This document shows positions 11,301 through 32,856 of a DNA stretch of 64,000 nt, piece by piece. Below the pieces are notes generated by a model. That model saw only the letters and a program-made list of their open reading frames with translations, was not told the origin of the DNA and ran no database searches. A program made the position numbers and the translations under genes. Source of the DNA: Bacteroidales bacterium (lineage in GTDB: Bacteria; Bacteroidota; Bacteroidia; Bacteroidales; FEN-979); assembly GCA_028706295.1 (NCBI GenBank), contig JAQWBQ010000011.1, forward strand, positions 10,506 to 74,505, written 5' to 3'. Numbering within the stretch: the first letter of the stretch is position 1; every line of letters begins with the position of its first letter.

Positions 11301-11648
11301 ATTCCAGTTGTCGATCAGGGTTGCATTGATCCCATACGACGGATGGGCCAGGAAAACCGGGTCTGTTTCCGTAAAGGTCATCTCGTTGAATTTTTTCCAC
11401 ACCGTGCCGTTGAACCAATAAAGAGCCCCGGCAGAGGTGTTATAAACAAGTAAACCGTCGGGCGGCGATACCACGGCAGTCATCTGCTCAGTAGTCATTC
11501 GTGGAGGAAGCAATCCTCTTGTTGTCGATTTTACGTCGAGCATGGCGGCATTGTCGGGTAAGCTGTTATCGTGGTTGATTGCCACCTGACCGACGGCAAA
11601 AAGATTGACGGTAAGAATCAAAGAAAAAAATACAATTCCTTTTTTCAT
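8343..11648 (-). CDS. Large secreted tail-fibre-like repeat protein with a C-terminal peptidase S74 intramolecular-chaperone domain
   Basis: 1101-aa ORF with a signal peptide and two N-terminal 'LLPPRMTT.QM.A..SP..GLLVYNT....Y.YNGT.W.K' modules. About 600 aa follow of degenerate ~14-aa 'SNTA.G..AL..NT.G' repeats. The C-terminus ('DGRFKFDI..DVKGL..I..LRPV.Y.F...GFI.QEVE......YGI.Y.QL...L.KAIQE' plus a coiled-coil tail) resembles the S74/endosialidase chaperone domain. Confidence 0.7.
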   Translation of the reverse strand: MKKGIVFFSLILTVNLFAVGQVAINHDNSLPDNAAMLDVKSTTRGLLPPRMTTEQMTAVVSPPDGLLVYNTSAGALYWFNGTVWKKFNEMTFTETDPVFLAHPSYGINATLIDNWNTAYSNRISSVNGSSPLTLVIENNVLHGFMVAANATTSGYLTTEDWNLFNGKVSSQWITSGTSIYYNAGNVGIGTTASANSAALEVSSTDKGLLIPRVTTAQMSAIASPATGLLVFSTDHQTIYFYNGTAWAKLAAASSGILKDSNGDTKVEVEKYPNEDIIRFTLAGNEKMRLDGNRMEFHGPGNNNFIGINAGVYNTGQYNTVLGSGAMFANTTGNSNTVVGQNALSSNQTGYSNVAVGVCALFSGNNGKNLVAVGDSALFNNGIGASELQFGSSNTAIGSKALFNNTIGFDNSAVGKAALYSNLSGWSNTAMGAYTLRSNLSNDNTAMGAYSLKDNTIGTGNTALGAWALHHNTTGSNNTVTGRGALEGNLGAVTGSNNTANGYSAMAHNIQGRNNTAIGSENMFSNTSGYSNTAVGFRSLYNNTDRSNLVAIGDSALYNNGSGTGNTAVGSKTLYSNTSGWWNTANGFQALLNNTEGYSSTAIGARALNSQTTGFQNTAIGCQALLNVTSGSGNTAIGYTSLANNLEGDYNTAVGYYALTGNSTGNFNMASGYDALAANSSGNSNLAIGYRSLFYNGTGHCNVAVGAKSLYNNHTHSNLVAVGDSALYNNGAGASGDQAKYNTAVGSKSLYANTTGYSNTAVGLQTLFGNNSGQENTALGTYALYLNTQGSYNTASGVSSLAANQTGNSNSAYGFHALFLNTSGLNTAVGAQALQANTFGTRNSATGSNCLYANVDGENNTAQGEGALYANQSGDNNTAVGQHSLSLNTTGSNCTAVGQDALAASNGNWNTALGHGANVSAASLSNSMALGDAALVNASNKVRIGDAYITSIEGQVPFVAVSDGRFKFDITEDVKGLTFIKRLRPVVYNFDTYRFTEFLTKDLPDSLKKIYLDKKDFSPSTSIRHSGFIGQEVEQAAREAGYDFDGVYIPRDDNDNYGIAYGQLVVPLVKAIQEQQTMIEDQQRQIELLKQQVEDLLRKLKE

Positions 11649-12904: not shown

Positions 12905-14476
12905 CTATTCCTTCATGCCTGCCGGGAAGGTGAAGGTGTCGTTGCCATCGGTAAGCCATTCCAATGAAAATCGGGCGAAATAGAGCTGATACTCTTCAAA
13001 TTCCCCGTTCTCGTAAAAGCATCCGATGGTACCGTCGCTCAGAATGGTGAGGCTTGAATAACCCGAAGCATCGGGATTGATGACCTTCGACACGCCCCAG
13101 CTCTGGCCTTCATCATAACTGAGGAAGACCGTCAGATTTTTCCTGAGGATGGGATGTGAAGCCAGGCTGAAGAGCAGGCGGCTTTTGTCGTAACCATCGA
13201 GAATGGATGTGTACCTGATGAAATCCCCGTTCACGGCCGGATCGGGAAGGTCATACTGAAAATAGGGCGTTCCCCACGTATCCCCATGGTCCTTGCTGAC
13301 GACGATTTTCCGGCAATCCGGCGTCTTATTACGGATATTCATCATGAGGCTGCCCTTGTCCAACTCCACGATCTTGGCTTCATCGCCGGCCGGGGAGGCT
13401 TCGTCCGGTTTGTAATGCCATGTCAATCCCACGTCATCACTGTAGATCATAAAGTTGTCAATGGTAGTTCCGGAGCTCTTTCTTACTCCGACGGCCCCGA
13501 TGATCCTGCCGTCGCGCTGCTGATGCGCGTTGCCGGAGGCCAGCCAGGCCGCGTACCATCCCGGGACATAGATCTCCGGCGTATGTTCCACGGGCGGGCT
13601 CCAGGTGAGCCCGTTGTCGGCGCTGCGACAAACCTGGAACCGGATGGGATTGGCCGGTGTAGAGGCCATCAATCCCTGGTGGGAGGCGAACATGCACAAA
13701 AGGGAACCGGTGCTGCGGTCTTTCACAAGCGCCGGGTCGCTGGCGCCGTAGGATCCGAAATCGGCGATGGTCAGCGGTTCCGACCAGGTGTGCCCCATGT
13801 CGGCGCTCCGGCGTATACGGATGTCGATGTTGTTGGGCAGATCGCCTGCCCGTTCAATGCGGGCGTCGGCGGCCGTGACCAGGGTTCCGTCGTCAGCGGT
13901 TATGATTGCAGGGATCCGGTAGTTGACCGAACCATAATCCCCGCCCGAATAGAGCAGTTTGTGTTCCAGCATGATCAGCCGTTTTGATACAGCAGTTGCC
14001 GGAATGACCTGACAGACCTGACCGTCGACTTTCACCGAATCGACATTCCCCTGAAGAAAATGTCCTTCCGGAGCTCCGGGTAAAATTTTCACGGTGATCC
14101 GGAAATAGTTGTTCCCATCCGACAAAAGGCAATTTCCGGCAATTGTGATGGATCCCGGCATAACCGGGCCGGTTCCGAAAAGAGTTCCCCCGACCGGCCG
14201 GGGATTGGCGCCGGTGTACCAGATCCCGAGGCTGTCGAGATCGTTCAGGTCGGTGGTTCCGGTAAGGTTAAATGTAACGGAATTCAGCGAAACGGGATTT
14301 GCCGTATCCTGGGTTTGCACATTCAGCGAAACCACCCGTTCAGCCGGTTCCCCGCGTCCGGCCGGGATGGTGACTGCAATCACATTGCATTGTTTGAACA
14401 TCATGTCCGGCTGTGCCACCGCACCTTTCAGGATGCACAAAACAATCAGAAGCGCCGGTAATGATTTTGTTTTCAT
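12905..14476 (-). CDS. Exo-alpha-sialidase (GH33 family)
   Basis: 523-aa ORF with a signal peptide and the 'YRIPAI' (RIP) motif. Five Asp-box/BNR repeats are present: SADMGHTW, SADNGLTW, SDDVGLTW, SKDHGDTW, SYDEGQSW. An N-terminal non-catalytic domain precedes the beta-propeller. Confidence 0.85.
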   Translation of the reverse strand: MKTKSLPALLIVLCILKGAVAQPDMMFKQCNVIAVTIPAGRGEPAERVVSLNVQTQDTANPVSLNSVTFNLTGTTDLNDLDSLGIWYTGANPRPVGGTLFGTGPVMPGSITIAGNCLLSDGNNYFRITVKILPGAPEGHFLQGNVDSVKVDGQVCQVIPATAVSKRLIMLEHKLLYSGGDYGSVNYRIPAIITADDGTLVTAADARIERAGDLPNNIDIRIRRSADMGHTWSEPLTIADFGSYGASDPALVKDRSTGSLLCMFASHQGLMASTPANPIRFQVCRSADNGLTWSPPVEHTPEIYVPGWYAAWLASGNAHQQRDGRIIGAVGVRKSSGTTIDNFMIYSDDVGLTWHYKPDEASPAGDEAKIVELDKGSLMMNIRNKTPDCRKIVVSKDHGDTWGTPYFQYDLPDPAVNGDFIRYTSILDGYDKSRLLFSLASHPILRKNLTVFLSYDEGQSWGVSKVINPDASGYSSLTILSDGTIGCFYENGEFEEYQLYFARFSLEWLTDGNDTFTFPAGMKE

Positions 14477-14593: not shown

Positions 14594-15960
14594 GTTTCAA
14601 TCCACGCCCACCACGAGGGGTGCGACCATATTCAGTTCGCAAGTTTTGCTTTACAACTGTTTCAATCCACGCACCCCTCGCGGGGTGCGACACGATCAAC
14701 TCGACAACATGGAAGCTGACGGGCGTTTCAATCCACGCACCCCTCGCGGGGTGCGACATCCGACGCCGGTTAAATACATGGGCCCGCCGGTGTTTCAATC
14801 CACGCACCCCTCGCGGGGTGCGACTTTTGCAGCGTCTTTTAATCCCAATGCCGCTTCACGGTTTCAATCCACGCACCCCTCGCGGGGTGCGACAAAACGG
14901 TGTTTTTACGGTTATGGTTTTCTTAAAGTTTCAATCCACGCACCCCTCGCGGGGTGCGACGCGAAGCGATCATAAAAACAGATGTACTGATTGCAGGTTT
15001 CAATCCACGCACCCCTCGCGGGGTGCGACACCGGACTGATTCGCTTTGGTTGACTTATTCTTCGTTTCAATCCACGCACCCCTCGCGGGGTGCGACGGAG
15101 CCGCTTCCGGGGTTCCGCCGTTGTTTTTTGTTTCAATCCACGCACCCCTCGCGGGGTGCGACTCTTTCGGCCGATGGATCCAGCTTACCGGAGTTGTTTC
15201 AATCCACGCACCCCTCGCGGGGTGCGACTCACAGGGAAAATCTGATAATTCTCTTTAAGGTGTTTCAATCCACGCACCCCTCGCGGGGTGCGACCGATTA
15301 CGCTTGTATTCGTTACCGCAATCCTTTGTTTCAATCCACGCACCCCTCGCGGGGTGCGACGTTGAGCGTCATCGAAGTTCGCCCGGCGGTATCGTTTCAA
15401 TCCACGCACCCCTCGCGGGGTGCGACACCAAATCAAACCCCAATAACCATGAAAACAATCGTTTCAATCCACGCACCCCTCGCGGGGTGCGACCAATAGT
15501 CGCAATTCGTTTTATGAGTATGAGAAGGTTTCAATCCACGCACCCCTCGCGGGGTGCGACAAAAAGCAAGGGAGCGCGTGGCATTGCACTACGAGTTTCA
15601 ATCCACGCACCCCTCGCGGGGTGCGACATAGTCCGGCCGAACGGAAAATAGTTTGAGGAGTTTCAATCCACGCACCCCTCGCGGGGTGCGACAATGAAGA
15701 TGATCCTGATACGGACTATACCGATGTTTCAATCCACGCACCCCTCGCGGGGTGCGACTCAGGTTAAGTCAAACAATCAAAACTAATAAGCCATGTTTCA
15801 ATCCACGCACCCCTCGCGGGGTGCGACGAGTTCTTTCCCTGTCTGCAGAGTATCGAGATAGGTTTCAATCCACGCACCCCTCGCGGGGTGCGACGCCTAT
15901 GCCGAGGCTGATGATGAAACCAGGAAGGTTTCAATCCACGCACCCCTCGCGGGGTGCGAC
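14594..15960 (-). CRISPR. Type I-C CRISPR array, 21 repeats of 33 nt and 20 spacers of 32-36 nt
   Basis: The plus-strand repeat is GTTTCAATCCACGCACCCCTCGCGGGGTGCGAC. Its minus-strand form, GTCGCACCCCGCGAGGGGTGCGTGGATTGAAAC, has the I-C hallmark ATTGAAAC 3' end and a 7-bp GCACCCC/GGGGTGC stem with a GCGA loop. Repeat starts are 14594, 14659, 14725, 14792, 14861, 14928, 14997, 15064, 15130, 15196, 15262, 15328, 15394, 15461, 15528, 15595, 15660, 15726, 15795, 15862 and 15928. The repeat farthest from cas2 (14594) has 4 mismatches, consistent with a trailer-end repeat. Confidence 0.97.
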
Positions 15961-16127
15961 TGTCAAACTATAAAATGTTAAAAAACAAATACATGTAAGC
16001 AGATTCCTGCGAACCTGGTTTTAAAAAATCTTTTTGCATTCAAAATCCCATCATAATTCACGTAAATGACTTATTATGAGGTGTTGCGAGTTCTCCGGAG
16101 TTTTACTGTTCACTCCAGGTTCGCGCA
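15961..16127 (-). promoter_or_regulatory. Putative CRISPR leader
   Basis: A 167-bp AT-rich non-coding stretch lies between the cas2 stop and the first perfect repeat. Orientation is inferred from the repeat polarity and the degenerate distal repeat. Confidence 0.6.
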
Positions 16128-16421
16128 TTAAACATATAGACAATCTGTTTCAGGATTGATAGATGATTTTGTTCCCACGTGCTCCACCTTGCCCGACCAT
16201 TTGGAACCTAAATGGTAAAACCGCAAACTATCCTTTTCTTTATCTATTACATCAATTAACCTGAATCTCAGTTCTGTAAATTGTCCCTGGTCCAAAACAC
16301 ACTCAAAAACTGAGTTTTGCACGCGCTGACCATAATCCTCACACATTTTAGCTACAGTCCTCAGGCGTTTCCTTCCTTTTCGATCCTGGGTCTCAACATC
16401 ATAGGTTATAAGTATCATCAT
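16128..16421 (-). CDS. cas2: CRISPR-associated endoribonuclease Cas2
   Basis: 97-aa ORF starting 'MMILITYDV...RLRTVAKMCEDYGQRVQNSVFEC', a typical Cas2 ferredoxin-fold N-terminus. It is adjacent to cas1 and the array. Confidence 0.9.
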   Translation of the reverse strand: MMILITYDVETQDRKGRKRLRTVAKMCEDYGQRVQNSVFECVLDQGQFTELRFRLIDVIDKEKDSLRFYHLGSKWSGKVEHVGTKSSINPETDCLYV

Positions 16422-16430
16422 ATCGTCACA

Positions 16431-17462
16431 CTATTTCACAATAAAAACAGGATAATTGTTCAGATCTCCTCTTAAATACCTGGCAAATAGTAATGCTTGT
16501 ACATAGGGTAATAATCCAATCGGGATTTCCTCATGCAAAAATGGATGGACGATTTTTTCCTGTTTTCGTTTTTGCCAGGCAGTAATTAATTCTTTCCGGG
16601 TATCGTCTTTCATTATTACATCGCCTGCATCAGTGTGTAAAAAACCATGTGAATTGATTTGCTTCCTGTTTATAAGCGAAAGAACAAGACGATCAGCAAG
16701 ATAAGGCCTGAATTCCTCCATCATATCCAGTGCGAGCGAGGGTCTGCCCGGCCTGTCACAATGTAAGAAACCGACATAAGGATCTAAACCAACAGTTTCA
16801 ATTGCTGATTGGATATCATGCATCAAAATGGTATAAACAAACGAGAGCATGGCATTGACATTATCCTTGGGTGGCCTCCTGTTTCGACCATGAAAAAAGA
16901 ATTCATCTTTTTGGCAAAGAATCATATGATCAAAGGAGGCAAAATATGCCAAAGCAGCTTCACCTTCGTATCCCCGGAGTTCATCTAAAGATGTAGCTCT
17001 GGAAATACTTTTCAACTTGTACTGAAGAACGGTGATTGACTCTTCCAATGCTTTGATATTCAATGATGGTCCGTGATCACGTATCACCCTTAGCAGGATT
17101 GACCGGCAATTGGATATCTTACCAAGAATAAAGATCCGTGAGATTGAAGTTATGGCCTCTTCCGAGTCTGCCTGACGATACTGTTTCCGTCGGAGTAGTA
17201 CATTCCCACTCACATTTCCCTGGAACCGTCCGATAAATTTGCCTGAGGGAGAAACGAAAGATAATCCGACATTCTTCTCGGCACACATTCCCATCAAACC
17301 GGGACTTGCTCCTAAATATCCAAAACAAACGATCCCTTCAATATTATGAATCGGTATTCTGAATTTTTCATTATCATTAACTTTAACAACCACATTCTCT
17401 CCATCTTTTGTCAGATAGGAATCGGGTGTTGTCACATATAGCGTATTCAGAAGTTTTCGCAT
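16431..17462 (-). CDS. cas1: CRISPR-associated endonuclease Cas1 (type I-C)
   Basis: 343-aa ORF starting 'MRKLLNTLYVTTPDSYL.KDGENVVV', with the Cas1 C-terminal alpha-helical region (GLDPYVGFLH). Its position between cas4 and cas2 fits. Confidence 0.9.
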   Translation of the reverse strand: MRKLLNTLYVTTPDSYLTKDGENVVVKVNDNEKFRIPIHNIEGIVCFGYLGASPGLMGMCAEKNVGLSFVSPSGKFIGRFQGNVSGNVLLRRKQYRQADSEEAITSISRIFILGKISNCRSILLRVIRDHGPSLNIKALEESITVLQYKLKSISRATSLDELRGYEGEAALAYFASFDHMILCQKDEFFFHGRNRRPPKDNVNAMLSFVYTILMHDIQSAIETVGLDPYVGFLHCDRPGRPSLALDMMEEFRPYLADRLVLSLINRKQINSHGFLHTDAGDVIMKDDTRKELITAWQKRKQEKIVHPFLHEEIPIGLLPYVQALLFARYLRGDLNNYPVFIVK

Positions 17463-17488
17463 AGATTGTAATCATCAGTAAAAAATAA

Positions 17489-18175
17489 TCATTGATAGTC
17501 CCGGGGAAATATTTCATTCAGGTATTGGTCAACATCAGTACCACCTTCCGAAGCCTTTGGCAGGCAAACATCCATCAGCGAGCACGATCTGCAATGCGCC
17601 ATAAAAACAGCCGGTGGCGTTTTCCCGGTATCAAAAAGTTCATGCATTCTTTTCGAAAATGAACAAACCAGTGATCGAAGTTGTATAGAGAATTCAACTT
17701 CATGCCGGTGTCGGGTTTCACCATAATAAAGAAATCCGATTTCAATCTGAATTCCATACATCTCTTCCAAACACATAGCTTGAGCACAAAGTTGCACCTC
17801 GTCACGCTCATCGGATTTGGGCTTTCCTCTTTTATACTCCACAGGCACCATCTCCCAATACCCTTGCCTTCCATCAATAAAAACAGATTTTTTCTTATCC
17901 CCCTTGAACGATCTTGTAAGCTCAACAACATCTGCCCGACCATATAATCCTAATGTGTATGAAATCAGAGGTACTGCTCGGAGCGTGTTTGTATTCGCTC
18001 TCAAATCTTGTTCCATTGGATCGTCCACTTTTTTATGCAGGAACTGGCCTTCGACAGTTAATTTGTTTTCCAACCATTGCTGTTCTACATGGATAAGCGC
18101 CCATTGTCGTTCGCAAAAGGCGATATGCTGAATGCCTGACAGCATCAACAGATCCTCATCCTTAAACAGGTCCAT
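17489..18175 (-). CDS. cas4: CRISPR-associated exonuclease Cas4
   Basis: 228-aa ORF with an N-terminal Cys (AFCERQW) and a C-terminal 'CRSCSLMDVC' cluster typical of the Cas4 Fe-S site. A RecB-like 'D..E.K' core (ADVVEL...VEYKRGK) is present. Confidence 0.88.
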   Translation of the reverse strand: MDLFKDEDLLMLSGIQHIAFCERQWALIHVEQQWLENKLTVEGQFLHKKVDDPMEQDLRANTNTLRAVPLISYTLGLYGRADVVELTRSFKGDKKKSVFIDGRQGYWEMVPVEYKRGKPKSDERDEVQLCAQAMCLEEMYGIQIEIGFLYYGETRHRHEVEFSIQLRSLVCSFSKRMHELFDTGKTPPAVFMAHCRSCSLMDVCLPKASEGGTDVDQYLNEIFPRDYQ

Positions 18176-18184
18176 GGTTAATGA

Positions 18185-19219
18185 TTAAATTTTTTTGTTC
18201 CCGATTAATCCTTTTTTCCTGATTTCTTTATCAAAATCCGATTCAATGATTTTGTCCCGTACTATCCTGTATTTTTCAAATTCATTTTCAGCAAGGGACA
18301 TTGCCAATTCATGTGACACTGTCCCCGGATGCAAAAGCACCTCCTTTTCGTTAAAACGAAGAAAGGCATCAAGCTTCTCAACCCAATCTTTCATAAACAT
18401 GATTATTCCCTTCTTTGCTTGTGTTTCAGCATAATCGAGATACATACTTACGATTCGGTTTAATGCTTCCAATTCAGTTTCATTCAGATAATTCTTTGCA
18501 ATCCCGATATCAGTTTTGCGGATACTGCCGGATGGAGCATTTTTCCAGTTTGTCAATCCCATATTTTCTACTGAACTGTCGGCTCTTGCTGCAATAATTT
18601 CAGCCGCGGTTTTGCCTGTTATAGCCCAATGAAGTTTATTTTGCACGGTAGAAAAAAATTCAGTGGTAATTCTCGCATTGGCATTGTAATCGGCGCTGCA
18701 TTGACTGTAGATATCGGTTATTTTCTGATAAAAACGTCGTTCACTCGACCTGATATCGCGTATGCGGGCGAGTTGTTCCTCAAAGTAATCTTTCCCAAAT
18801 ATATTTTCAGGATTTTTCAGGCGTTCATCATCCATAGTGAAGCCTTTGATAATATACTCTTTCAGCCTTTCGGTAGCCCAAATTCTGAAATGGGTGGCCT
18901 GAATACTGTTTACGCGATATCCCACCGAAATAATTGCATCCAGATTATAGAACTGGGTTGAATATTTTTTTCCATCAGCGGCAGTATGTGCAATTATTGC
19001 ACATACTGAATCTGGCTTTAACTCATTACTGATGAAGATATTTCTTAAATGCTTGGTTATTACAGTCCTGTCAACTCCAAACAGCTCGGCAATTTTTAGT
19101 TGTGTCAGCCAAATGGTTTCGTCACGAAGAAATATTTCAACTTTAACTTTTCCGTTCGGGGTCGTGTAAAGGAGGATTTGGTTGAAGCCTTCCCGTGCAG
19201 GATAATTTTTTTTACCCAT
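18185..19219 (-). CDS. RhuM-family protein embedded in the cas operon
   Basis: 344-aa ORF. 'ILLYTTPNGKVKVEIFLRDETIWLTQLKIAELFGVDRTVITKHLRNIF...' and 'YNLDAIISVGYRVNS..ATHFRIWAT..L' match the conserved N-terminal half of RhuM (PF13310-type) proteins as I remember them. The gene ends 9 bp before the cas4 start and begins 71 bp after the cas7c stop, on the same strand. Confidence 0.75.
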   Translation of the reverse strand: MGKKNYPAREGFNQILLYTTPNGKVKVEIFLRDETIWLTQLKIAELFGVDRTVITKHLRNIFISNELKPDSVCAIIAHTAADGKKYSTQFYNLDAIISVGYRVNSIQATHFRIWATERLKEYIIKGFTMDDERLKNPENIFGKDYFEEQLARIRDIRSSERRFYQKITDIYSQCSADYNANARITTEFFSTVQNKLHWAITGKTAAEIIAARADSSVENMGLTNWKNAPSGSIRKTDIGIAKNYLNETELEALNRIVSMYLDYAETQAKKGIIMFMKDWVEKLDAFLRFNEKEVLLHPGTVSHELAMSLAENEFEKYRIVRDKIIESDFDKEIRKKGLIGNKKI

Positions 19220-19290
19220 CTTGTTTGGAATAAATTTGTTGACAATAAAAAATGGTTGATAATAACTTTATCCGCGTAATTCATTTAGAA

Positions 19291-20127
19291 TTAAAGCATT
19301 TCGATAAGTTCAACGCCCGCAGGCATAGATTTGTTTATGGTAACTGAATAATCGCCCCAGGACCTGGGTAGTTCGTTGTTTTTTACAATCTGGACCTTGT
19401 CAAAAAGTTCACCGGATCGGGCTGACCCCAGATGATTATTATGCTTGAAAACAATTAATTTCCTTGGGTTCATTTCTCCCCGGGCAGCAGCACGATCATG
19501 TTCAAAGGCATTAAGCAATGCTTCCCACAATAATGTCAGGTCTTCTTCTGAAAATCCAGATTTCATTGCATCAACAGCTGAAACAAATCCATGCATTCGG
19601 TAAAGTGCATATGGAACTGTAGATTTGCGGCCGAAAGTAGAAGCATTTTCCCTTTTTTCCTGTGATTTTGCCTCTTTTTCAGTTGTAACAGCGCAGCGTG
19701 TTATTGAATGCTCAGCCTGGTATATCCGGTCCTCAGAACGTGAAAAGGTGAACTGCACGGGGCCCCTGACAGTTCCTGCGCCTTTTTCTCCTACACTTAA
19801 AACGGCTCCAAAGGCACGTATGTCATAATAATCTTTACACAAATTATTTTGTCTTTCCGGAATTGTGTTTCCAAGTGTATTGTCAATAATCGGAGCTAAG
19901 ACATTTCCCTGTCTGATAAAAATATCGTTGGGTTTACTTAAATTATCCTTTAACTGCACATAATTCCGGACTTTCCGTTTAATACATACATCTGTGATTA
20001 TTCCCTCCTGGTTTTCCGCATCCACACGTGGAAGATTTGCCTGATCCGGATCACCGTTAGGATTTCCGTCTTTTACATCAAATAGAAAAACAAAGTCGTA
20101 ACGATTTTTAATTGTTTTTGTTTCCAT
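19291..20127 (-). CDS. cas7c: Type I-C Cascade subunit Cas7c (Csd2)
   Basis: 278-aa ORF. 'RYDFVFLFDVKDGNPNGDPD' is the Csd2/Cas7 signature N-terminus. Confidence 0.9.
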   Translation of the reverse strand: METKTIKNRYDFVFLFDVKDGNPNGDPDQANLPRVDAENQEGIITDVCIKRKVRNYVQLKDNLSKPNDIFIRQGNVLAPIIDNTLGNTIPERQNNLCKDYYDIRAFGAVLSVGEKGAGTVRGPVQFTFSRSEDRIYQAEHSITRCAVTTEKEAKSQEKRENASTFGRKSTVPYALYRMHGFVSAVDAMKSGFSEEDLTLLWEALLNAFEHDRAAARGEMNPRKLIVFKHNNHLGSARSGELFDKVQIVKNNELPRSWGDYSVTINKSMPAGVELIEML

Positions 20128-20130
20128 GTT

Positions 20131-21948
20131 TTAATCCTCCTGATTTTCTAATAATGGTTGAAGTTCTTTATTGATTTTTGCATTGTCATAATCCTGCTGT
20201 TTCTGATGGTAATATCCGAGTGCAAACTGCCCTTGTTCTTCAAGCGAAAAGATTGTTGGAAATCCATCAATATTGTTGCACAATTCCTGTAGTTGCCTGT
20301 CAAGTAATACGGCGAGTCCGGGCTTGTCGTGTTTAAGTTTTGAAATGTGATTTTGCGATAATTTCATCAACCTGCCATAAGCAGGAGCCGGGCTGGTAGA
20401 AGCAAAAGAGAAAAATCGTTCACGAATTCCTGCATTTAGATCTTTGCCTTGTGCTGCTCGTTGAATACTTTCCATCACTGCGAAAATTTTACCGCAAACA
20501 ATAGCTGGGCTCTTATCGTTCGGGTCATTTTGTTCTTTTATCATAATTCCTCCGTTTTTATTATTTCTGTTTAGAATAAACCTTATTAATGCTGCTCTAT
20601 CGGGTGTAACTGGATCTTTTATCTCTCCATTCTCTGAACTCTCGGTAAAACGAATCCTTTTCAGTATTGCTGCTAAAATCCACAATGGAGGTGTTGAATT
20701 TTTTAGCGCAGCATTCCACAGATGTGTTGCTATCCGGGCCTTCGTCTGATCATTGACAGATTTGACATTTTGACCGGCCATTGCCAATAGGTGTAAGGGA
20801 GCATACCTTGTTTCACCGTATGCATGGATGGCGATTTCCTTAAACCATTTTGCAATGTTATTTCTGTAATCATCCAGGCTTATCTCAATCCAATCACGCA
20901 CAGCTATGCGTGCTGCAGCGCCTGATAGTGTGAGAGAATAAAATTGGTTCGGCTTAATACCCCTGACAGTCCTTTTATCACCCTGACTAACAGAGTCAAA
21001 TAGCTTTGTGATTTCACCCGGATCAGGATTATCAAGTAAATGAATATCATCTATTGATTCTTCTTCTCGTGTCCAATAAATGTTCGCGGTATCTGAACCT
21101 AAATTTTTGCGATTGGTGAAAGAAAAATATTGTTTTTCCTTTCCTTTTTTATCAGTAATGGTATTTTCACTGCCATTAGCCAATAACCAATTTAGGCCTT
21201 CCACGTAATTTTTAGCACAATTGGTGCAAATAGAAGAGTTATCATTCCCTTTTAAGTTGTATGATTCAAATGCTTTTTCATTATATGAAACCAAAGCACA
21301 ACCTGCTTTTTGCCCATCAGGAACCCTTTTGATCATTCCATGTGGTTGATCTAAAACCGGAAAATCGCTCTTCCCACATATCGAACAAACCTTTTGTTGT
21401 CCAGATAACTGTGCTGCCTGTTCTATTTCGAACTTTTCGATAATAGCATTATATACCACTTGCTGCTCATGAAGCCTGTCATCCTTAATCCGAAAAGCAA
21501 TATTCCCTAATCTGTCTTTTTCGCCAACCTGATTTTCAAATTCACGAAAAGCTTTATCCAGCCCATTTTCCCGGTTATCATAATAAAAGTCAAAAACAGG
21601 TTTTAAAACATCCAATTCCTTATATAATTGCAATTTTTTTAAAAAAAGTTGATGCTTATACTGTAATGCGGATTCAGCCTTATTTTGTTTTTCTGATTTC
21701 TCATTTTCAGGAATATTTGAACAAAAACCAGAATAATTCAACACCTCACTTGCTTTATCAAGTAATAGTCGCGCTTTTCCTTTTTTTGAGGTTATGGCTT
21801 CTGCCGGCCTACTTATTTTGTCAATTACCGAAAACGAATGAAACGAGCCGTCTTCATTGATCACCAAATCAACTGAAATAGGCTCGTCTTTTAACGCATC
21901 GTGTCCCTTTCGTATCCGTTTTCCAAACTCCGCTAATTCCTTGATCAT
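20131..21948 (-). CDS. cas8c: Type I-C Cascade large subunit Cas8c (Csd1)
   Basis: 605-aa ORF between cas5c and cas7c. It has a Cys-rich 'CSICG...C..C' segment and an alpha-helical C-terminal third. In characterised I-C systems that region also yields an internally translated Cas11c. Confidence 0.85.
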   Translation of the reverse strand: MIKELAEFGKRIRKGHDALKDEPISVDLVINEDGSFHSFSVIDKISRPAEAITSKKGKARLLLDKASEVLNYSGFCSNIPENEKSEKQNKAESALQYKHQLFLKKLQLYKELDVLKPVFDFYYDNRENGLDKAFREFENQVGEKDRLGNIAFRIKDDRLHEQQVVYNAIIEKFEIEQAAQLSGQQKVCSICGKSDFPVLDQPHGMIKRVPDGQKAGCALVSYNEKAFESYNLKGNDNSSICTNCAKNYVEGLNWLLANGSENTITDKKGKEKQYFSFTNRKNLGSDTANIYWTREEESIDDIHLLDNPDPGEITKLFDSVSQGDKRTVRGIKPNQFYSLTLSGAAARIAVRDWIEISLDDYRNNIAKWFKEIAIHAYGETRYAPLHLLAMAGQNVKSVNDQTKARIATHLWNAALKNSTPPLWILAAILKRIRFTESSENGEIKDPVTPDRAALIRFILNRNNKNGGIMIKEQNDPNDKSPAIVCGKIFAVMESIQRAAQGKDLNAGIRERFFSFASTSPAPAYGRLMKLSQNHISKLKHDKPGLAVLLDRQLQELCNNIDGFPTIFSLEEQGQFALGYYHQKQQDYDNAKINKELQPLLENQED

Positions 21949-22655
21949 AATACCTCCATTTCTTCTTTCTGGTTAAACCCGTATATAACTGATGAAACCT
22001 TGCTATCCATTTCCGGTTGAAAATGGGATGAAAGCATCATTTTTTCGTTCTCAGATTTGGGGCACATCAGGATGCCGTCTACCACGGCAACATCATAAAA
22101 AAACAAAGGTGATGGGTTGCCTTTTTCATCAAAAAAAATGTCGAAAAGCATACTGCCAATTGGTATTGTTTCCCGTATAGGTTGTTCAGTGCCATCCGGG
22201 GCACAAAATTCTGCAGCAAATTCACGTGTTCCTAAAAAAGGTCTTCGCCAACATTGGCCTTTCTTTACGCGTCGCCGAAACATTTCAGTATACTTCTTTA
22301 GATGATTAACAGGATTAAAGTTTTTTTGAAATACAGAAGCTTCGATGATGTATGCAACATCCTTTAAAATAATACTGTTTCTCTGGGCCCGTCTCTCCTC
22401 TATTAAAATCGGTGTTTTCCCTTGTTTGGCGTTAATTTCATTCCGTCTGACCGAGAAAAATTTAACCGGATTAAGCACAACAATCCTATGTATCCACCAT
22501 TGAAATTCAGGCTTCCAAAGAATTGAATCGAGCACCCCCCTTGCAGCAGATGGAGTCATGCATGGATAGGTCATTCGTTCAACTTTCAAGTCGGGCCTGG
22601 TAAAGCAGGCAAATTCACCTGTCACTTTTACACGTAAGATTTCATTATCTATCAT
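21945..22655 (-). CDS. cas5c: Type I-C Cas5c (Cas5d) pre-crRNA endoribonuclease
   Basis: 236-aa ORF. 'VKVTGEFACFTRPDLKVERMTYPCMTPSAARGVLDSILWKPEF' is the canonical Cas5d N-terminus. Its stop overlaps the cas8c start by 4 nt. Confidence 0.9.
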   Translation of the reverse strand: MIDNEILRVKVTGEFACFTRPDLKVERMTYPCMTPSAARGVLDSILWKPEFQWWIHRIVVLNPVKFFSVRRNEINAKQGKTPILIEERRAQRNSIILKDVAYIIEASVFQKNFNPVNHLKKYTEMFRRRVKKGQCWRRPFLGTREFAAEFCAPDGTEQPIRETIPIGSMLFDIFFDEKGNPSPLFFYDVAVVDGILMCPKSENEKMMLSSHFQPEMDSKVSSVIYGFNQKEEMEVL

Positions 22656-22671
22656 AATTCTGTTTTATAAG

Positions 22672-24837
22672 TTATATAATGTAAGTATCAGGTTGAGTAT
22701 TACTGGAGATACCGTAATCAGGGTCGTACATACCGTACCATTTCCAATAACCTTGGGGTTCTTTCCCCATTTTGTCAAAATTTTCATTAATAAAATTGTC
22801 ATAGACCTGCACTGAATACTGCTGCATAGATCTGAAGTCGGATCGTGATAATATTGGCTTATATCTTATTTTCTCATACAAATCCCTGCTTTCGTTACAA
22901 AGTATAAAAACAGGCGTTGTCTGTTTTTCAATTAATTGATATGATTCAGAAACGGTTTTAAAATTGAATCCCAGTCTGGCCTGACCAATGTTTTTTTTGT
23001 CTTCAGGAATAAAAAGTGTGAAGGCTTTTCGATAATACTCCTTAAAGAAATCATGTTCAAAAAGCAGAGCTTCTTTTCCTTTGTACAAGCTATTTGCGAA
23101 TTCAGCCAAGGATCGATATTGCTTATCAGGCGAGCCTGCCCCTTCAATTGAAAATATGTAAACCCTGCCAGGCTTATCCAATTTTCCTTCACGATTGCAT
23201 CGTCCGGCCGACTGAATAATTGATTCCAAAGGAGCGAGCTCCCGGTAAACATTTGGAAAATCGAAATCAACTCCGGCTTCAATTAATTGGGTAGAAGATA
23301 CCAATATCTTTTCCTTGTTGCTCAAACAATTTCGAATGGCTCTAATCACTGCTTTGCGGTGTGCCGGATACATGCCTGTTGATAAATGAAAGACTTTATC
23401 GTTTGGGCAATTACGAATTGCATTAAAAAATAGCAAAGCTTGTTTTTTGGTATTGAAAACACACAAGGTCGAACCATCGCGCGCTACCACGTTATCACAT
23501 AATTCATCAATTGTTATCGGTTCGTAATTGTTTAACGGCAGGTAAACAACCCTCCTGGTAGCTTCAAACACTTCTTTTGGATTTTCAACCAAGGACTGAA
23601 TAGAATCAATACCATCAAAAATTTCACTTTTTTCAAAAGCCGGTTGTGTTGCCGTGCAAAACAGAAATGAAGTTTCCATAACTTTCTGAACATTTTTTAA
23701 CATGGTAAGGGTAGGCAATACCAATTCTTTCGGGAGCGTTTGGACTTCATCAAATATTACAACCGATTGAGCGATGTTGTGAACTTTCCGACATCGGGAC
23801 GGCTTGTTTCCAAATAATGATTCAAAAAATTGTACTGATGTAGTAACGATGATCGGGTAGTCCCAGTTTTCGGTAGCTAATCTCTTCGTATAGGTTTCGT
23901 TTGTCAGAATTTCATTTGCTATTTCTTTATTAGTTTCCTCATCTTCATTGAAGTTTGAATGATGTTCAAGCACCCACTCTTCGCCAAAAATGCGTTTCAA
24001 TTCCTGTGCAGTCTGGTCAATAATACTTATGAACGGTAGAACAATGATTATTCTCTTCAAACTGTTATGCTGAGCATGATGCAAAGCCCAACTAACCGAT
24101 GTTAATGTTTTACCCATCCCTGTCGGAAGCGTCATAGAAAAAAAACCAGTATCGGCCCTGGCTTTTAAAATTGCATAATTTCGAACGCTGTTTCGCAATG
24201 TGTTTAAATAACCTTCCTTGCTTTTTCCATCAATCTCCTTTTCAAATTTTGCTAACAGATATTGAGGATCAAGTACTATCGAATTTCGTCTCTCAGACTC
24301 AGATGGACTAAAATGCCGTTCAGTATCTAACCAATCCGCATCCGTCAACGCACTAAACAGCATCCGGATAAACAATTCTTTATCAATACCTCTCAAGCCA
24401 GTATCTTGATAACCCAAATCATCTGCCTTAATTGAGTTTTCTTTTAAAAACTCTGGCATTATGGAAGTCAATAAAGGATGATCCGGATCATCAAATTCAT
24501 AAAGATCAGTTTTTAGATTACCCTTATCCGGAAGACCTTTATGATGGCCGTCAATCGCAAATGCAGCTTCAATTTGGTTATATTGAACAGCAATCGCTGC
24601 ACCCCAACTGGCATGGGGGACACTACCTTTCGTACCTCCTTCTGTCAGGTATTTTTGAAACGCTGGTTGGTATTTACCTAAATCGTGAAGTAATCCAGTG
24701 GTTCGAAATATCTCATTATAAATAGGATTTTCTGTTAATGAACTCATTATTTTGGAGACCCCATTCAGGTGGTCGGACAACTTATGCACGGTCCCCTGAT
24801 CATTTTTTGAATGGGCAATATATCTTTTCTCTTCCAT
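22672..24837 (-). CDS. cas3: CRISPR-associated helicase/nuclease Cas3 (HD domain plus SF2 helicase)
   Basis: 721-aa ORF with HD-nuclease motifs near the N-terminus (LLHDLGKY, IDGHHKG). Walker A 'LPTGMGKT' and the DEAD-like 'VIFDEVQ' box are present. It is the first gene of the operon. Confidence 0.9.
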   Translation of the reverse strand: MEEKRYIAHSKNDQGTVHKLSDHLNGVSKIMSSLTENPIYNEIFRTTGLLHDLGKYQPAFQKYLTEGGTKGSVPHASWGAAIAVQYNQIEAAFAIDGHHKGLPDKGNLKTDLYEFDDPDHPLLTSIMPEFLKENSIKADDLGYQDTGLRGIDKELFIRMLFSALTDADWLDTERHFSPSESERRNSIVLDPQYLLAKFEKEIDGKSKEGYLNTLRNSVRNYAILKARADTGFFSMTLPTGMGKTLTSVSWALHHAQHNSLKRIIIVLPFISIIDQTAQELKRIFGEEWVLEHHSNFNEDEETNKEIANEILTNETYTKRLATENWDYPIIVTTSVQFFESLFGNKPSRCRKVHNIAQSVVIFDEVQTLPKELVLPTLTMLKNVQKVMETSFLFCTATQPAFEKSEIFDGIDSIQSLVENPKEVFEATRRVVYLPLNNYEPITIDELCDNVVARDGSTLCVFNTKKQALLFFNAIRNCPNDKVFHLSTGMYPAHRKAVIRAIRNCLSNKEKILVSSTQLIEAGVDFDFPNVYRELAPLESIIQSAGRCNREGKLDKPGRVYIFSIEGAGSPDKQYRSLAEFANSLYKGKEALLFEHDFFKEYYRKAFTLFIPEDKKNIGQARLGFNFKTVSESYQLIEKQTTPVFILCNESRDLYEKIRYKPILSRSDFRSMQQYSVQVYDNFINENFDKMGKEPQGYWKWYGMYDPDYGISSNTQPDTYII

Positions 24838-25206
24838 AAATAAAGATAATCATGAGATCGATGCATGAACTGCCCTTAAACTGTCAACCTATGTATCTCA
24901 GATACCGGGATAACAGAATGGGCTTTTTACAACTTACGTTTGTCGGTAAAATATCAGGTAATATTATGCAAGTGATCTTCTGAAAATACTATACAAAGAT
25001 ATAACAAGAAATTTTAAATGTTCACTGTCAATAAAATATTCGTCTGTCAAACCTGAAAATTATCGTGTTAATAGGCGACAAGGCAAACATCCAAAGGATC
25101 GATTTGAACAATCATCGCTTGATTATCTCCCGAGTGAAAAAAACGAACCAAATGAATGAAGATGATCGATGAGACTGATAAATATCTGGCAAACTTTTTA
25201 AAAAAA

Positions 25207-25563
25207 TCAACCATTCTGTTGAATCTCATTTTGAGAGGCAACATCTTTATCATCGCTGCCTTGCCCGCCTCTTTTCATCTCGCTCAGCTTCCTGCCGACA
25301 ACCAGGTTATATTCATTTTGCAAATCGACCGGGGTCACTTCGTTGGAGATGCCGGCTGCTTTGTTCTGCCGATACTGGCTTGCCGCGGCCTTTGCTGCAA
25401 TCGCGAAACGACGACGGTTCTCCTTCTGCTTTTTGGTCCATACACCTTTAAAAACTGGCTTTGCCGAAAGGATTACATATTTACCGTAATTTTTCAGAAT
25501 CACCTGTTTGCCGATTGTTCCGCTGAAACATTTGACCAGCACATTGTCCTTGCTTTTTGCCAT
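25207..25563 (-). CDS. Hypothetical small basic protein (118 aa)
   Basis: K/R-rich ORF (KKQKENRRRFAIAAKAAASQYRQNK) with an acidic/polar tail. I recognise no family. It lies 156 bp downstream, in its own direction, of the 11-bp repeat array. Confidence 0.5.
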   Translation of the reverse strand: MAKSKDNVLVKCFSGTIGKQVILKNYGKYVILSAKPVFKGVWTKKQKENRRRFAIAAKAAASQYRQNKAAGISNEVTPVDLQNEYNLVVGRKLSEMKRGGQGSDDKDVASQNEIQQNG

Positions 25564-25718
25564 CGGATTGATTATTTTTGTTATTGAAATTTTCCGGATT
25601 TAAAGCTTAATCCGCCTTCACTAACAAAAGTCAACGCTCCCTCCTTCTTTTTTCCGGAATCAGCTATCTTTTTCCGGTTTTTGCTCAATTTTATATCGTT
25701 GTTCAACCGGAAGACCAT

Positions 25719-25960
25719 CGCAGGATGGACGCAGGATGAACGCAGGAAGAACACAGGATCAATGTAGTATCGACGAAGAATCTACGCGGTATGGACGCGA
25801 GATATGTGCTGGATGGATTCTAGATCAGCACGCAATCAACGCAGGATTGAGGCAAGATTGACCCAAGATTGAGCCAAGTTCAACGCCGGATTGACGTACC
25901 ATAGAGACAGTATGGACGAGGAATCAAAGCAGGATGTTCGCAGAATGGTCGCGGGATGAC
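25719..25960. repeat. Array of 22 contiguous, indel-free 11-bp units (consensus about CGCAGGATKGA)
   Basis: Units read directly from the sequence: cgcaggatgga, cgcaggatgaa, cgcaggaagaa, cacaggatcaa, tgtagtatcga, cgaagaatcta, cgcggtatgga, cgcgagatatg, tgctggatgga, ttctagatcag, cacgcaatcaa, cgcaggattga, ggcaagattga, cccaagattga, gccaagttcaa, cgccggattga, cgtaccataga, gacagtatgga, cgaggaatcaa, agcaggatgtt, cgcagaatggt, cgcgggatgac. The AT dinucleotide at unit positions 7-8 is kept in 20 of 22 units. Confidence 0.85.
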
Positions 25961-25974
25961 GCTGCCCTTTCAGA

Positions 25975-27270
25975 CTACAAAATGATCTGTTCAGGCCAGG
26001 GATTTGTTTTTGAAGTTCCCCAGAGCTTGTTGATATAATCGATCGAAAAGAAATCTTCAAAAGCATGAATCCAATAGGCGCCTCTGTCGGTCAGATTGAT
26101 CAGGTCCTGTCCGTTTTGAAGAAATCCAATTTTTTCCATCAGTGAAAAATATGTTCCATATTCTTTATCAATACTTTGGCCAAACCTTCGCTGGAAATCA
26201 CTTTTTCTGAATTTGGTTTCATAAATTCTCCAATAGAGCCACCCGGCCATTTGTGCTTTTTCTGATAAATCAAAGGATAAAGCAATGGGGGAGTTGTTGT
26301 TCTCCATAGCCCTGATATATTCTTTCACATTGAACGTGTTCACATAAAACATGTTTTTAAGATAGGAACTGCCACTGGCGCCAATTCCCAGGTATGAAGG
26401 AACCGTGACTGAACAATATTTATCCATTCCCTTTTGCGTGAAAGCCCACACCGATGAGCGTTCAAATCGTGACCCGTAAAAAATCTCTTCAATTACTTTG
26501 AGAAACTTTCTTCGGCGGAACATCGTTGAAAGGATATTGCGTTTATCAGGCAACTCTTTACCAAAGCGGGTATATTGAAATCTGAATAGTGGATACGTGG
26601 CTGCCTGGTTGATTCCAAGCTTAATCATGCTGGAGATGGCCTGCTCTACCTCAGATATCGTTTGGCCCGGTAAATCAAATATAAAATCGATGTTTAAACA
26701 CTCGAAATTTTTCCCGGCAGCTCTGCTCACAAAATCCTTAACCTCATTTTCAGTATAAGGCCTTTCCAATAATTTTAAATGCCTGTTCTGCAATGCTTCA
26801 ACGCCGACACTTAAGTATTTTACACCCAATGATTTCAGGGCATCAAGGTTTTCATTGCTCAGATGGTTGGGGTGACTTTCGATATGAATAGAACACCTCA
26901 TATTGAAATTTTTAAAAACCGCATCAAGAATCTCTTCCAGCCCCTTACCCAACATGGTTGTCGGGGTGCCACCTCCGATGTAAAAACTTGAAATGGGTTT
27001 CCCTGCCATCAGGGCTGCGTATTTTTTAACCTCCCTGACAACCGCTGCTGCATAATTCCGGGCAAGATCTTCATGAAACAGCTCTTTGTTATAGGGGCAA
27101 TAAGGACATATTTGGTTGCAAAACGGAATATGAAGATATAATCCTGTTTCGTCAAGCTCTTTAAAATTTTGAGCTATGGATGAATCTTGCGGAATAATAT
27201 TCTGAAACTTAATTTCATGTTGCCCAAAGAATTTTCCGGCTATCTTATTTCGAATAATTTCTGAAATCAT
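25975..27270 (-). CDS. HemN-like radical SAM enzyme (oxygen-independent coproporphyrinogen III oxidase family / class C radical SAM)
   Basis: CxxxCxxC motif 'CNQICPYCPY', then 'FYIGGGTP' and a HemN-type C-terminal domain. The track ORF extends to 27384, but that extension translates the TCGTAAA repeat element (MFNRKFYLIVNRKS...). The ATG at 27270 (MISEIIRNK) is the more likely start. Confidence 0.8.
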   Translation of the reverse strand: MISEIIRNKIAGKFFGQHEIKFQNIIPQDSSIAQNFKELDETGLYLHIPFCNQICPYCPYNKELFHEDLARNYAAAVVREVKKYAALMAGKPISSFYIGGGTPTTMLGKGLEEILDAVFKNFNMRCSIHIESHPNHLSNENLDALKSLGVKYLSVGVEALQNRHLKLLERPYTENEVKDFVSRAAGKNFECLNIDFIFDLPGQTISEVEQAISSMIKLGINQAATYPLFRFQYTRFGKELPDKRNILSTMFRRRKFLKVIEEIFYGSRFERSSVWAFTQKGMDKYCSVTVPSYLGIGASGSSYLKNMFYVNTFNVKEYIRAMENNNSPIALSFDLSEKAQMAGWLYWRIYETKFRKSDFQRRFGQSIDKEYGTYFSLMEKIGFLQNGQDLINLTDRGAYWIHAFEDFFSIDYINKLWGTSKTNPWPEQIIL

Positions 27271-27364
27271 TTCTGTTGATATCTTCTGATTCGATCCTCC
27301 GTGGCTTGATCCGGGATCCGGGCCGAAATTTACGATTAAACAAGATTTACGATTGACGATTAAA

Positions 27365-27404
27365 TAAAATTTACGATTGAACATGATTTACGATTTACGA
27401 TTGT
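27365..27404 (-). repeat. TCGTAAA-heptad element, copy A (core, reverse orientation), inside a cluster of ATTTACGATT-like units at 27326..27427
   Basis: The minus strand reads ACAATCGTAAATCGTAAATCATGTTCAATCGTAAATTTTA, identical over 40 nt to 34679..34718 on the plus strand. The surrounding region holds at least 5 further direct copies and 1 inverted copy of TTTACGATT. Confidence 0.9.
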
Positions 27405-27472
27405 ACTATTTTTAATCATAAATCGTAGTTTGAAGGTTTTTTCAAGACAAATCAATTTTAACAGACTCCCGG

Positions 27473-28351: not shown

Positions 28352-28465
28352 TTACACCTTTTATGCGAATAGGTTGGAAATTCCATCAGGTTAAATTTAA
28401 AGTATACGGATCCTGTTGTCAAGGCTATGTACAAACATAGATTCAGACTAAATAGAACTCAGGCC

Positions 28466-28499
28466 GATTTGACAAATCTTTCTTTATTATTGTCAAATC
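28466..28499. terminator. Perfect 10-bp inverted repeat, GATTTGACAA-(14 nt)-TTGTCAAATC; possible terminator or operator
   Basis: Read directly from the sequence. It lies about 80 nt downstream of the stop of 28576..29865 and upstream of the radical SAM gene. No clear U-tract follows, so the function is uncertain. Confidence 0.25.
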
Positions 28500-28575
28500 T
28501 TGCTGTACAGACTATAAGTTGTTGAGCGAGGATCCCGGTTCGAAAGGAATTGTCATTGCCGGCAATCCTGACCTG

Positions 28576-30902: not shown

Positions 30903-30908
30903 AACGAT

Positions 30909-32855: not shown

Positions 32856-32856
32856 A

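Follow-up and report, generated by a model that had tools for sequence, protein, structure and literature searches.

A 64,000-nucleotide (nt) stretch of the genome of a Bacteroidales bacterium (GenBank assembly GCA_028706295.1, contig JAQWBQ010000011.1, positions 10,506 to 74,505 of the forward strand), hereafter the window, encodes a complete type I-C CRISPR-Cas locus, in which a gene of the RhuM family is embedded between cas7c and cas4, that is, between the interference and the adaptation module. Comparison with related loci showed that RhuM genes are found at the same place in no fewer than eight further type I-C loci, belonging to four Cas7 lineages and three phyla, that in one instance the gene has moved together with the adaptation module, and that the junction is a specific slot with interchangeable occupants. 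Judged by family matches, the cargo of this slot is largely that reported from inside type I restriction-modification (R-M) operons. We favor, with a probability of about 0.55, a reading in which RhuM is an autonomous sensor-effector defense gene that is stacked in the cas operon and expressed with it, and is not a Cas component.

The locus lies on the minus strand of the window with the gene order cas3-cas5c-cas8c-cas7c-RhuM-cas4-cas1-cas2, followed by a CRISPR array that adjoins the cas genes on the same strand and whose repeats end in ...ATTGAAAC when read on the cas strand. All seven cas genes were matched by Pfam and NCBIfam models within one operon, which identifies the system as type I-C; there is no cas6, and RhuM is the sole non-cas open reading frame (ORF) inside the operon. 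A first-pass annotation of the window had described an embedded ORF of 344 amino acids (aa) on the operon's strand, starting 71 nt after the cas7c stop and ending 9 nt before the cas4 start, and the coordinates that we obtained agree with it exactly. Its assignment of the ORF to RhuM is borne out by the Pfam profile PF13310 (Virulence_RhuM), which is matched with an E-value of 8.4e-110 (366.4 bits against a cut-off of 33.7) by residues 71-322, covering positions 1-248 of the 252 in the model. Moreover, the protein aligns end to end with the PADLOC profile for PDC-S05 (PDLC04851, E 1.4e-146; residues 10-336 align to positions 7-334 of the 342 in the profile). By these matches the gene encodes a full-length member of the RhuM family, the PADLOC candidate single-gene defense system PDC-S05. 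Searches of NCBIfam and PHROGs gave no matches, and a sequence search of PDB returned chance matches only. The family is large, with 28,518 matches at E<=1e-3 among representatives of 50%-identity clusters, and the window protein is 76-81% identical to many Bacteroidota proteins. Even with proteins of such very distant groups as Patescibacteria, Gammaproteobacteria, Omnitrophota and Planctomycetota it shares 65-79% identity, unusually high for a defense-associated gene. The label "virulence protein", which RhuM has borne since its discovery in Salmonella pathogenicity island SPI-3, is a misnomer.

To place the gene in its wider context we surveyed the best relatives of RhuM at 80 loci, one per species-level genome (L001-L080), in 76 of which the RhuM ORF could be called. 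R-M genes of type I or IIG were found no more than four genes away in 20 of the 76 (hsdS in 14, hsdR in 11 and hsdM in 10), type I-C operons hosted the gene in three, and the remaining copies lay mostly beside unrelated genes. The connection between RhuM and type I R-M operons that the first-pass annotation had put forward thus holds good, and on one contig (P0009) RhuM sits directly between hsdS and hsdR. Such R-M-embedded loci also show Bro-N, KilA-N and DUF1016 neighbors. Of 138 immediate neighbors of RhuM, 117 share its strand, and the median gap is 66 nt. With three of 76 loci in cas operons, RhuM does not qualify as CRISPR-linked as Shmakov et al. (2018) use the term, for a family that occurs predominantly in cas loci. 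The picture changes among the closest database homologs of the window protein, five of seven of which are encoded in type I-C operons at the cas7-cas4 junction, i.e. they are enriched there: P0001 (99% identity), P0002 (81%), P0003 (79%, on three contigs, among them the genome GCA_025355465.1, in which the operon is full), P0005 and P0008. A further homolog, P0007, is a solitary RhuM beside a ParE toxin gene. RhuM genes also occur on plasmids (112 of 72,556 records) and in phages (48 of 50,697), among the latter mainly Streptococcus satellite phages and the Wolbachia phage WO. Full-length homologs (46-61% identity) lie near one end of many Streptococcus satellite genomes (Javan*, MissB2) and also occur in Wolbachia WO prophages, which is consistent with accessory or defense cargo of mobile elements.

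The cas-embedded copies are found at the cas7-cas4 junction in L004, L034, L161, L162, L163/164/165, L168 and the P0005 contig, and at the cas4-cas1 junction in L080. In terms of Cas7, lineage A comprises the window, L162 and L163/164; lineage B L161, L004 and L034; lineage C L168; and lineage D L080. L004, from another member of Bacteroidales, has the order cas7-RhuM-cas4 with the same 9-nt gap before cas4 as the window, whereas the gammaproteobacterial L034 reads cas7-RhuM-cas4-BroN-cas1 and L080, from Nitrospirae, cas7-cas4-RhuM-cas1-[23S_rRNA_IVP protein]-cas2. The second passenger in the adaptation module of L080 (L080:12063-12482), placed between cas1 and cas2, is a genuine 23S_rRNA_IVP/bAvd-like four-helix protein (142 bits). 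In a phylogenetic tree of RhuM, the copies from L004, L034 and L080 are scattered among R-M-embedded copies, the nearest relative of the L034 copy being an R-M copy of another gammaproteobacterium.

How the gene travels is best seen in L161, a metagenomic contig of another sample (Logan assembly of SRR8925765). From the RhuM start codon through cas4 and into cas1, the window and L161 share 99.8% DNA identity over 1,859 nt (L161:1104-2962, reaching the contig end), whereas upstream of the RhuM ATG the two are unalignable and their Cas7 proteins are just 29-32% identical. A block of this similarity next to unrelated upstream sequence implies that two different interference modules were each coupled very recently to RhuM-cas4-cas1, RhuM having moved together with the adaptation module. 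The breakpoint of this exchange lies just upstream of the RhuM ATG. L163 presents the opposite pattern: here Cas7 (91%), Cas3, Cas5 and Cas8c (76-83%) and RhuM (79%) are close to those of the window, while Cas4, Cas1 and Cas2 show only 58-64% identity (Cas4 58%, Cas1 64%), and DNA similarity of about 77% spans RhuM and about 120 nt of cas4 before it drops. A constant co-segregation of RhuM with the adaptation module, which L161 alone might have suggested, is rejected by this locus. Taken together, the two patterns point to exchange on both sides of RhuM, with RhuM staying at the junction. Conserved cassette ends, inverted repeats, att-like sites and recombinase genes were sought around RhuM in 24 loci and none was found, the flanks being unrelated. 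A sporadic insertion is not what the comparison reveals; instead, RhuM is conserved in diverged type I-C operons and carried along in the exchange of modules.

The specificity of the junction emerged from a census made independently of RhuM, for which 80 metagenomic type I-C loci (L081-L160) were gathered via Cas1 alignment. All gene junctions were measured, and an additional same-strand ORF of at least 80 aa was counted as a passenger. The cas7-cas4 junction holds such an ORF in 24 of 59 informative loci (41%, from loci ranked by similarity to the window Cas1) and the cas4-cas1 junction in 4 of 72. The four junctions away from cas4 are all without one in this sample, namely cas3-cas5 (0/34), cas5-cas8c (0/33), cas8c-cas7 (0/42) and cas1-cas2 (0/71). 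The commonest occupants of the slot, in 11 loci, are uncharacterized proteins some 190 aa long that resemble the four-helix 23S_rRNA_IVP family below threshold; one clear IVP member can be added to them. They are followed by Fic/DOC proteins matching SoFic/PDC-S04 (six loci) and by fusions of the RhuM N-terminal domain to Fic that correspond to PDC-S23 (three loci and a fragment). Other occupants are a YhcG/DUF1016 nuclease of the PD-(D/E)XK type (PDC-S02), a Bro-N protein, an AlbA_2-HATPase_c_4-Fic-like_C protein, a HEAT-repeat protein and several ORFs without family assignment. The occupant can differ even between close relatives: L081, whose interference genes are the closest to those of the window among the metagenomic loci (73-83%), has an unrelated 225-aa ORF in place of RhuM, and in L082 a cas7-cas4 gap of 550 nt lacks a same-strand ORF altogether. 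That a junction-specific slot can be filled by RhuM or, interchangeably, by several other genes argues against a role in CRISPR function specific to RhuM.

The slot is unevenly distributed. In a tree of Cas4, passenger-bearing loci are concentrated in two clades, that of the window and a large one including L080, while passengers are nearly absent from two others; the nearest Cas4 neighbor is also passenger-bearing for 21 of 27 passenger loci against 11.5 expected (permutation p about 8e-4). By this clustering, the slot is a heritable property of certain adaptation-module lineages, within which the occupant turns over. A seemingly related signal, that Cas4 proteins of passenger loci are closer to the window Cas4, was rejected as an artefact of mixed queries, there being no difference with window-only queries (Mann-Whitney p = 0.8). 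As an independent check, 12 annotated type I-C loci on plasmids, each from a different genus of cultured bacteria and one of them from Nitratidesulfovibrio vulgaris Hildenborough, were inspected; in all of them cas7c and cas4 are adjacent (0/12 with a passenger; Fisher p = 0.006 against the metagenomic sample), which likewise indicates that the slot is lineage-restricted.

The RhuM protein falls into two domains in an AlphaFold model derived from a 62-sequence alignment that included 37-57% identical representatives (pLDDT, the predicted local distance difference test, 88.3; predicted template modeling score, pTM, 0.76); a model from a shallow alignment of 46 near-identical homologs, with a pLDDT of 52, was not used. 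With Foldseek, the N-terminal domain gave 34 matches among the predicted viral structures of BFVD at E<=1e-3 (best 3.9e-9), many of them to Bro-N, KilA-N, "repressor domain" or antirepressor proteins, with template modeling (TM) scores of up to 0.69 on short targets. In PDB its fold matches were winged-helix domains and DdrC, which binds DNA breaks (E 2e-3, TM 0.45 normalized to the target). At the sequence level, no Pfam Bro-N match was obtained at E<=1 with either the first 80 residues or the whole protein, and hhalign against the Bro-N passengers gave a probability of 10.7%, which is weak support. Those passengers (L034:11471-12532, L086:4092-4943) and R-M-embedded Bro-N neighbors do align weakly to RhuM over 177 columns, past the N-terminal domain (hhalign E 0.003, alignment A7), which hints at a RhuM/DinD-like superfamily wider than RhuM alone. 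In the all-helical C-terminal domain, I156, R157 and N194 are invariant across an alignment of 37-81% identity, and S159, E160, D177, Q193, K195, T204, E207, R212, D237, K242, N243 and E249 are nearly so. Older annotations as "Fic" and an H-x4-G motif had raised the idea that this domain is related to Fic, which was rejected, as hhalign against the Fic passengers gave a probability of 0.2%; RhuM has no Pfam Fic match, nor is there any Fic structure among its PDB fold matches. The model thus shows a winged-helix/Bro-N-like resemblance of the N-terminal domain, but neither Fic nor a confident PDB fold match for the C-terminal domain. The N-terminal domain is additionally fused to Fic/DOC in PDC-S23 proteins, with 44-50% identity over about 120 residues (BLAST, PADLOC). 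Such a replacement of the RhuM C-terminal domain by Fic is the signature of a common sensor or adaptor domain with exchangeable effectors, and agrees with Anantharaman et al. (2013; PMC3710099), who proposed RhuM as a toxin domain that takes the position of DOC. The N-terminal domain is presumed to sense DNA or a ligand, and the C-terminal domain is presumed to be the effector. There is no ORF between RhuM and either cas7c or cas4 that could encode an antitoxin, and hence no pairing of the type II toxin-antitoxin kind.

Neither a terminator-like hairpin nor a sigma-70-like site nor a Bacteroidetes-type TAnnTTTG (-7) motif is present in the 71-nt gap between cas7c and RhuM, and the RNA fold of this gap is no stabler than that of shuffled sequence (z = -0.43). 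An Rfam search returned a single sub-threshold match to a CRISPR repeat. A scan for the -7 motif from 15.9 to 25.4 kb detected TATCTTTG upstream of cas3, a candidate operon promoter by motif match, and one further match within RhuM at 18803, about as many as expected by chance. In most other cas-embedded loci the gaps around RhuM are 6-36 nt, again on the same strand. Given the shared strand, the short gaps and a 71-nt gap free of terminator and promoter motifs, it is plausible that RhuM is transcribed together with the cas genes; the first-pass annotation had thought this very likely. The features of the locus are collected in Table 1.

Table 1. The type I-C locus of the window and the features discussed in the text; coordinates count from the first letter of the window
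Feature	Coordinates	Strand	Remarks
cas3	22672..24837	-	721 aa; HD nuclease and helicase; first gene of the operon; Pfam Cas3-like_C_2, DEAD, ResIII, HD
cas5c	21945..22655	-	PF09704, E 1.7e-21
cas8c/Csd1	20131..21948	-	type I-C signature gene; PF09709, E 6.7e-96
cas7c/Csd2	19291..20127	-	closes the interference module; PF05107, E 2.8e-92; TIGR02589, 295 bits
cas7c-RhuM spacer	19220..19290	-	71 nt; also left edge of the block common with L161, where the alignment breaks down
RhuM-family gene	18185..19219	-	ATG start; 344 aa; passenger; PF13310, PDC-S05; AlphaFold pLDDT 88.3
RhuM N-terminal domain	18815..19192	-	about residues 10-135; beta-strands and helices; Bro-N/KilA-N/winged-helix-like
RhuM C-terminal domain	18215..18814	-	about residues 136-335; all-helical; invariant I156, R157, N194 and a conserved polar cluster
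cas4	17489..18175	-	first core gene of the adaptation module; PF01930, TIGR00372
cas1	16431..17462	-	PF01867, E 6.7e-108
cas2	16128..16421	-	PF09827, E 2.6e-27
CRISPR array	14659..15960	-	20 identical 33-nt repeats, GTCGCACCCCGCGAGGGGTGCGTGGATTGAAAC (cas strand), and 19 spacers
Block common with L161	17361..19219	-	RhuM, cas4 and the start of cas1; blastn, 1859 nt, 99.785% identity
-7 promoter motif	24994..25001	-	TATCTTTG; Bacteroidetes type; about 160 nt upstream of cas3; motif scan; candidate operon promoter

The genes around the operon (radical SAM enzymes, Fib_succ_major proteins, a sialidase, a histidine kinase) include none for defense, indicating that the placement of RhuM is not an instance of ordinary defense-island clustering. 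The G+C content of RhuM, about 39%, equals that of the cas genes and thus gives no compositional sign of a recent insertion of RhuM into the operon. On a larger scale, an 18-kb segment (16000-34000) has about 38-41% G+C, with one 2-kb bin (28-30 kb) reaching 48%, against about 48% in the rest of the window, and was probably acquired horizontally. Besides the cas operon, it holds radical SAM genes (25975-27384 and 27473-28351), two proteins with Fib_succ_major domains, and MORN-repeat, DUF3857/transglutaminase and TonB_C proteins. In the 1.1-kb interval between the radical SAM gene and cas3 there are two short tandem arrays of 11-nt units (25719-25894; CGCAGGATGAA x3.7 and GATTGAGCCAA x3.1) and a lysine-rich ORF of 118 aa (25207-25563, minus strand), overlapped by a plus-strand ORF (25156-25587) without a Pfam match. 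Directly past the CRISPR array lies a BNR sialidase gene (12905-14476) of unusually high G+C (55-60%), and positions 8343-11648 encode a 1101-aa protein with a Peptidase_S74 (endosialidase chaperone) domain, reminiscent of a tail fiber.

Under the reading that we favor, the N-terminal Bro-N/KilA-N-like domain of RhuM would sense DNA or a phage factor, and the conserved helical C-terminal domain would serve as the effector or toxin. The gene would be cargo at the boundary between interference and adaptation, the one site where the type I-C operon puts up with additional genes; it would be transcribed from the cas promoter, and inherited and exchanged with cas modules. The window copy would accordingly be anti-phage, and the locus would add a second, innate or abortive, layer of immunity beside the adaptive one. 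The autonomy of RhuM is suggested by its mostly non-cas distribution, the interchangeable occupants of the slot, the Fic domain swap and the activity reported for PDC-S05 as a single gene: one such gene, expressed alone in E. coli B, reduced the plating of the phages T7 and T5 about 1000-fold (bioRxiv 10.1101/2024.09.26.614923; PMC12881386). Of the roles proposed by the first-pass annotation, the accessory immune or abortive one fits both the PDC-S05 identity and this protection, whereas a regulatory or CRISPR-specific one is argued against by the interchangeable cargo. Several points weigh against our reading. The functional evidence comes from one heterologous assay of one other member of the family, in a preprint, and no confident fold relative of the C-terminal domain was found in PDB. 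A toxin unregulated by any antitoxin gene would need auto-inhibition, as our reading assumes. That passengers are strictly confined to the two junctions beside cas4, and to some lineages of Cas4, could instead stem from a functional link with adaptation; the 24 of 59 loci with a passenger at the cas7-cas4 junction, having been ranked by Cas1 similarity, may not represent all of type I-C; and the 12 plasmid-borne loci lack passengers.

The absence of an antitoxin gene has another possible solution, since some other mechanism of silencing is then needed: RhuM and the other occupants might be latent toxins that act as guards in the manner of PrrC, silenced by an intact defense complex and freed upon its inactivation. 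The silencer would be Cascade or Cas4-Cas1-Cas2 in the present case and HsdMS in R-M systems, and the trigger a phage anti-CRISPR, anti-restriction or DNA-mimic protein. The intra-operon position that RhuM shares with prrC and DOC in type I R-M operons (PMC3710099) speaks for this, as do the strict junction specificity beside cas4, the inheritance with the adaptation module and the clustering by Cas4 lineage. Yet RhuM proteins 75-80% identical to that of the window occur in R-M operons, in type I-C operons and as solitary genes, which makes a specific partnership with unrelated complexes unlikely; moreover, a PDC-S05 gene is active alone in E. coli and the slot holds unrelated families of cargo, so that we regard such a guard as improbable. 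Even more doubtful is the extension of this idea to the slot as a whole, by which the cas7-cas4 junction of certain type I-C adaptation lineages, like the hsdS-hsdR junction, would serve guard-type effectors as a dedicated docking site and tie their function to the host system, with RhuM, Fic/DOC, RhuM-N-Fic, YhcG and the four-helix proteins all silent until an anti-CRISPR or DNA mimic disables Cascade or Cas4-Cas1-Cas2. Were it true, CRISPR-Cas systems would possess a built-in defense against anti-CRISPRs.

Turnover of occupants between close relatives, as in L081 and L082, would also be expected of a selfish or neutral hitch-hiker, for which the boundary merely tolerates insertion and provides free transcription, with no immune benefit to the host. 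The tight packing of RhuM without a promoter of its own and its absence from all 12 plasmid-borne loci of cultured bacteria agree with this. However, the protein is under strong constraint, with 65-80% identity across phyla and a full-length intact ORF in every cas-embedded case, and no recombinase, inverted repeats or conserved ends point to autonomous mobility; most occupants are from families listed as defense candidates, and one RhuM family member is anti-phage. A mere hitch-hiker therefore seems unlikely to us. Least credible is an accessory CRISPR factor, be it a DNA-binding regulator of the cas genes or a helper of Cas4-Cas1-Cas2 that provides or marks DNA during spacer acquisition. Such a role could draw on the resemblance of the N-terminal domain to the DNA-binding Bro-N, KilA-N and winged-helix folds and to DdrC, on the location of RhuM directly upstream of cas4, with which it travels, and on its adjoining cas1 in the type II-C system of Bacteroides fragilis. 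It is at odds with the location of most family members far from cas genes, with the occupation of the same slot by Fic/DOC, a PD-(D/E)XK nuclease and four-helix proteins that have no obvious common role in adaptation, and with well-studied type I-C systems, which function without such a gene, and with the 12 plasmid loci, all of canonical gene order. An autonomous, stacked defense gene hence remains the reading that we prefer.

RhuM is among the largest defense-associated families without known biochemistry. Its recurrence at a specific junction, its travel with the adaptation module and its interchange with Fic/DOC, YhcG and related cargo offer handles on its function, and bear at the same time on the stacking of defense systems within single operons. 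They also show that part of the natural diversity of type I-C has a non-cas gene in mid-operon that annotation pipelines ignore; such genes may affect immunity, the toxicity of transplanted loci and the outcome of an anti-CRISPR attack.

The first-pass annotation knew of no association of RhuM with a cas operon, but one had been reported: Tajkarimi and Wexler (2017; PMC5704556) described two hypothetical ORFs with RhuM domains between cas1 and cas9 of the type II-C system of B. fragilis. From type I R-M operons, RhuM is known at the position of prrC and DOC (PMC3710099), and DUF1016, RhuM, Fic/DOC and GIY-YIG are known between the core genes (PMC9881135). Together with the PDC-S05 candidacy and the one PDC-S05 assay, these reports make up what was already established. 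A 2018 preprint on a systematic screen for CRISPR-linked genes and a phylogenomic paper on Cas4 mention neither RhuM nor Fic nor DUF1016. Beyond the papers cited here, our literature search found no functional or structural study of RhuM and no description of passengers at the cas7-cas4 junction of type I-C loci. We found no prior description of the recurrence of RhuM at this junction, of its co-transfer with the adaptation module, or of a junction-specific, Cas4-lineage-restricted slot that draws on the same pool of cargo as type I R-M operons.

The setting is a variant on the theme of defense genes embedded in defense operons, with no new mechanism shown, and its relation to known systems can be stated as follows. 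By its description, the B. fragilis system resembles the window in having RhuM in a Bacteroidota cas operon at the boundary between effector and adaptation genes; it is, however, a class 2 type II-C system in which RhuM was only described, while the window has a class 1 type I-C system. R-M-embedded RhuM genes, between hsdS or hsdM and hsdR, belong to the same family at 75-80% identity and show the same tight same-strand packing at a module boundary, which there divides modification from restriction and here interference from adaptation in an adaptive type I-C system. The window protein matches PDC-S05 over its full length; PDC-S05 was, however, defined as a stand-alone gene, whereas the window copy sits within another defense operon, from which it is probably expressed. 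PDC-S23 and SoFic/PDC-S04 use the same slot, at the cas7-cas4 or cas4-cas1 junction, in other type I-C loci, with a Fic domain bearing HPFxDGNGR as the effector, unlike the RhuM C-terminal domain, which has no similarity to Fic. With the phage Bro-N, KilA-N and antirepressor proteins and the Deinococcus DdrC, only the fold of the N-terminal domain is held in common, and the C-terminal domains differ. PrrC is the model for a second layer of defense that backs up a host system. It combines an ABC-ATPase with a HEPN RNase, and neither domain was found in RhuM by Pfam or PDB fold searches. In gene order the two nonetheless agree: the window RhuM is embedded inside a host defense operon, as an effector gene in its midst, just as prrC is in the EcoprrI type I R-M operon (PMC3710099).

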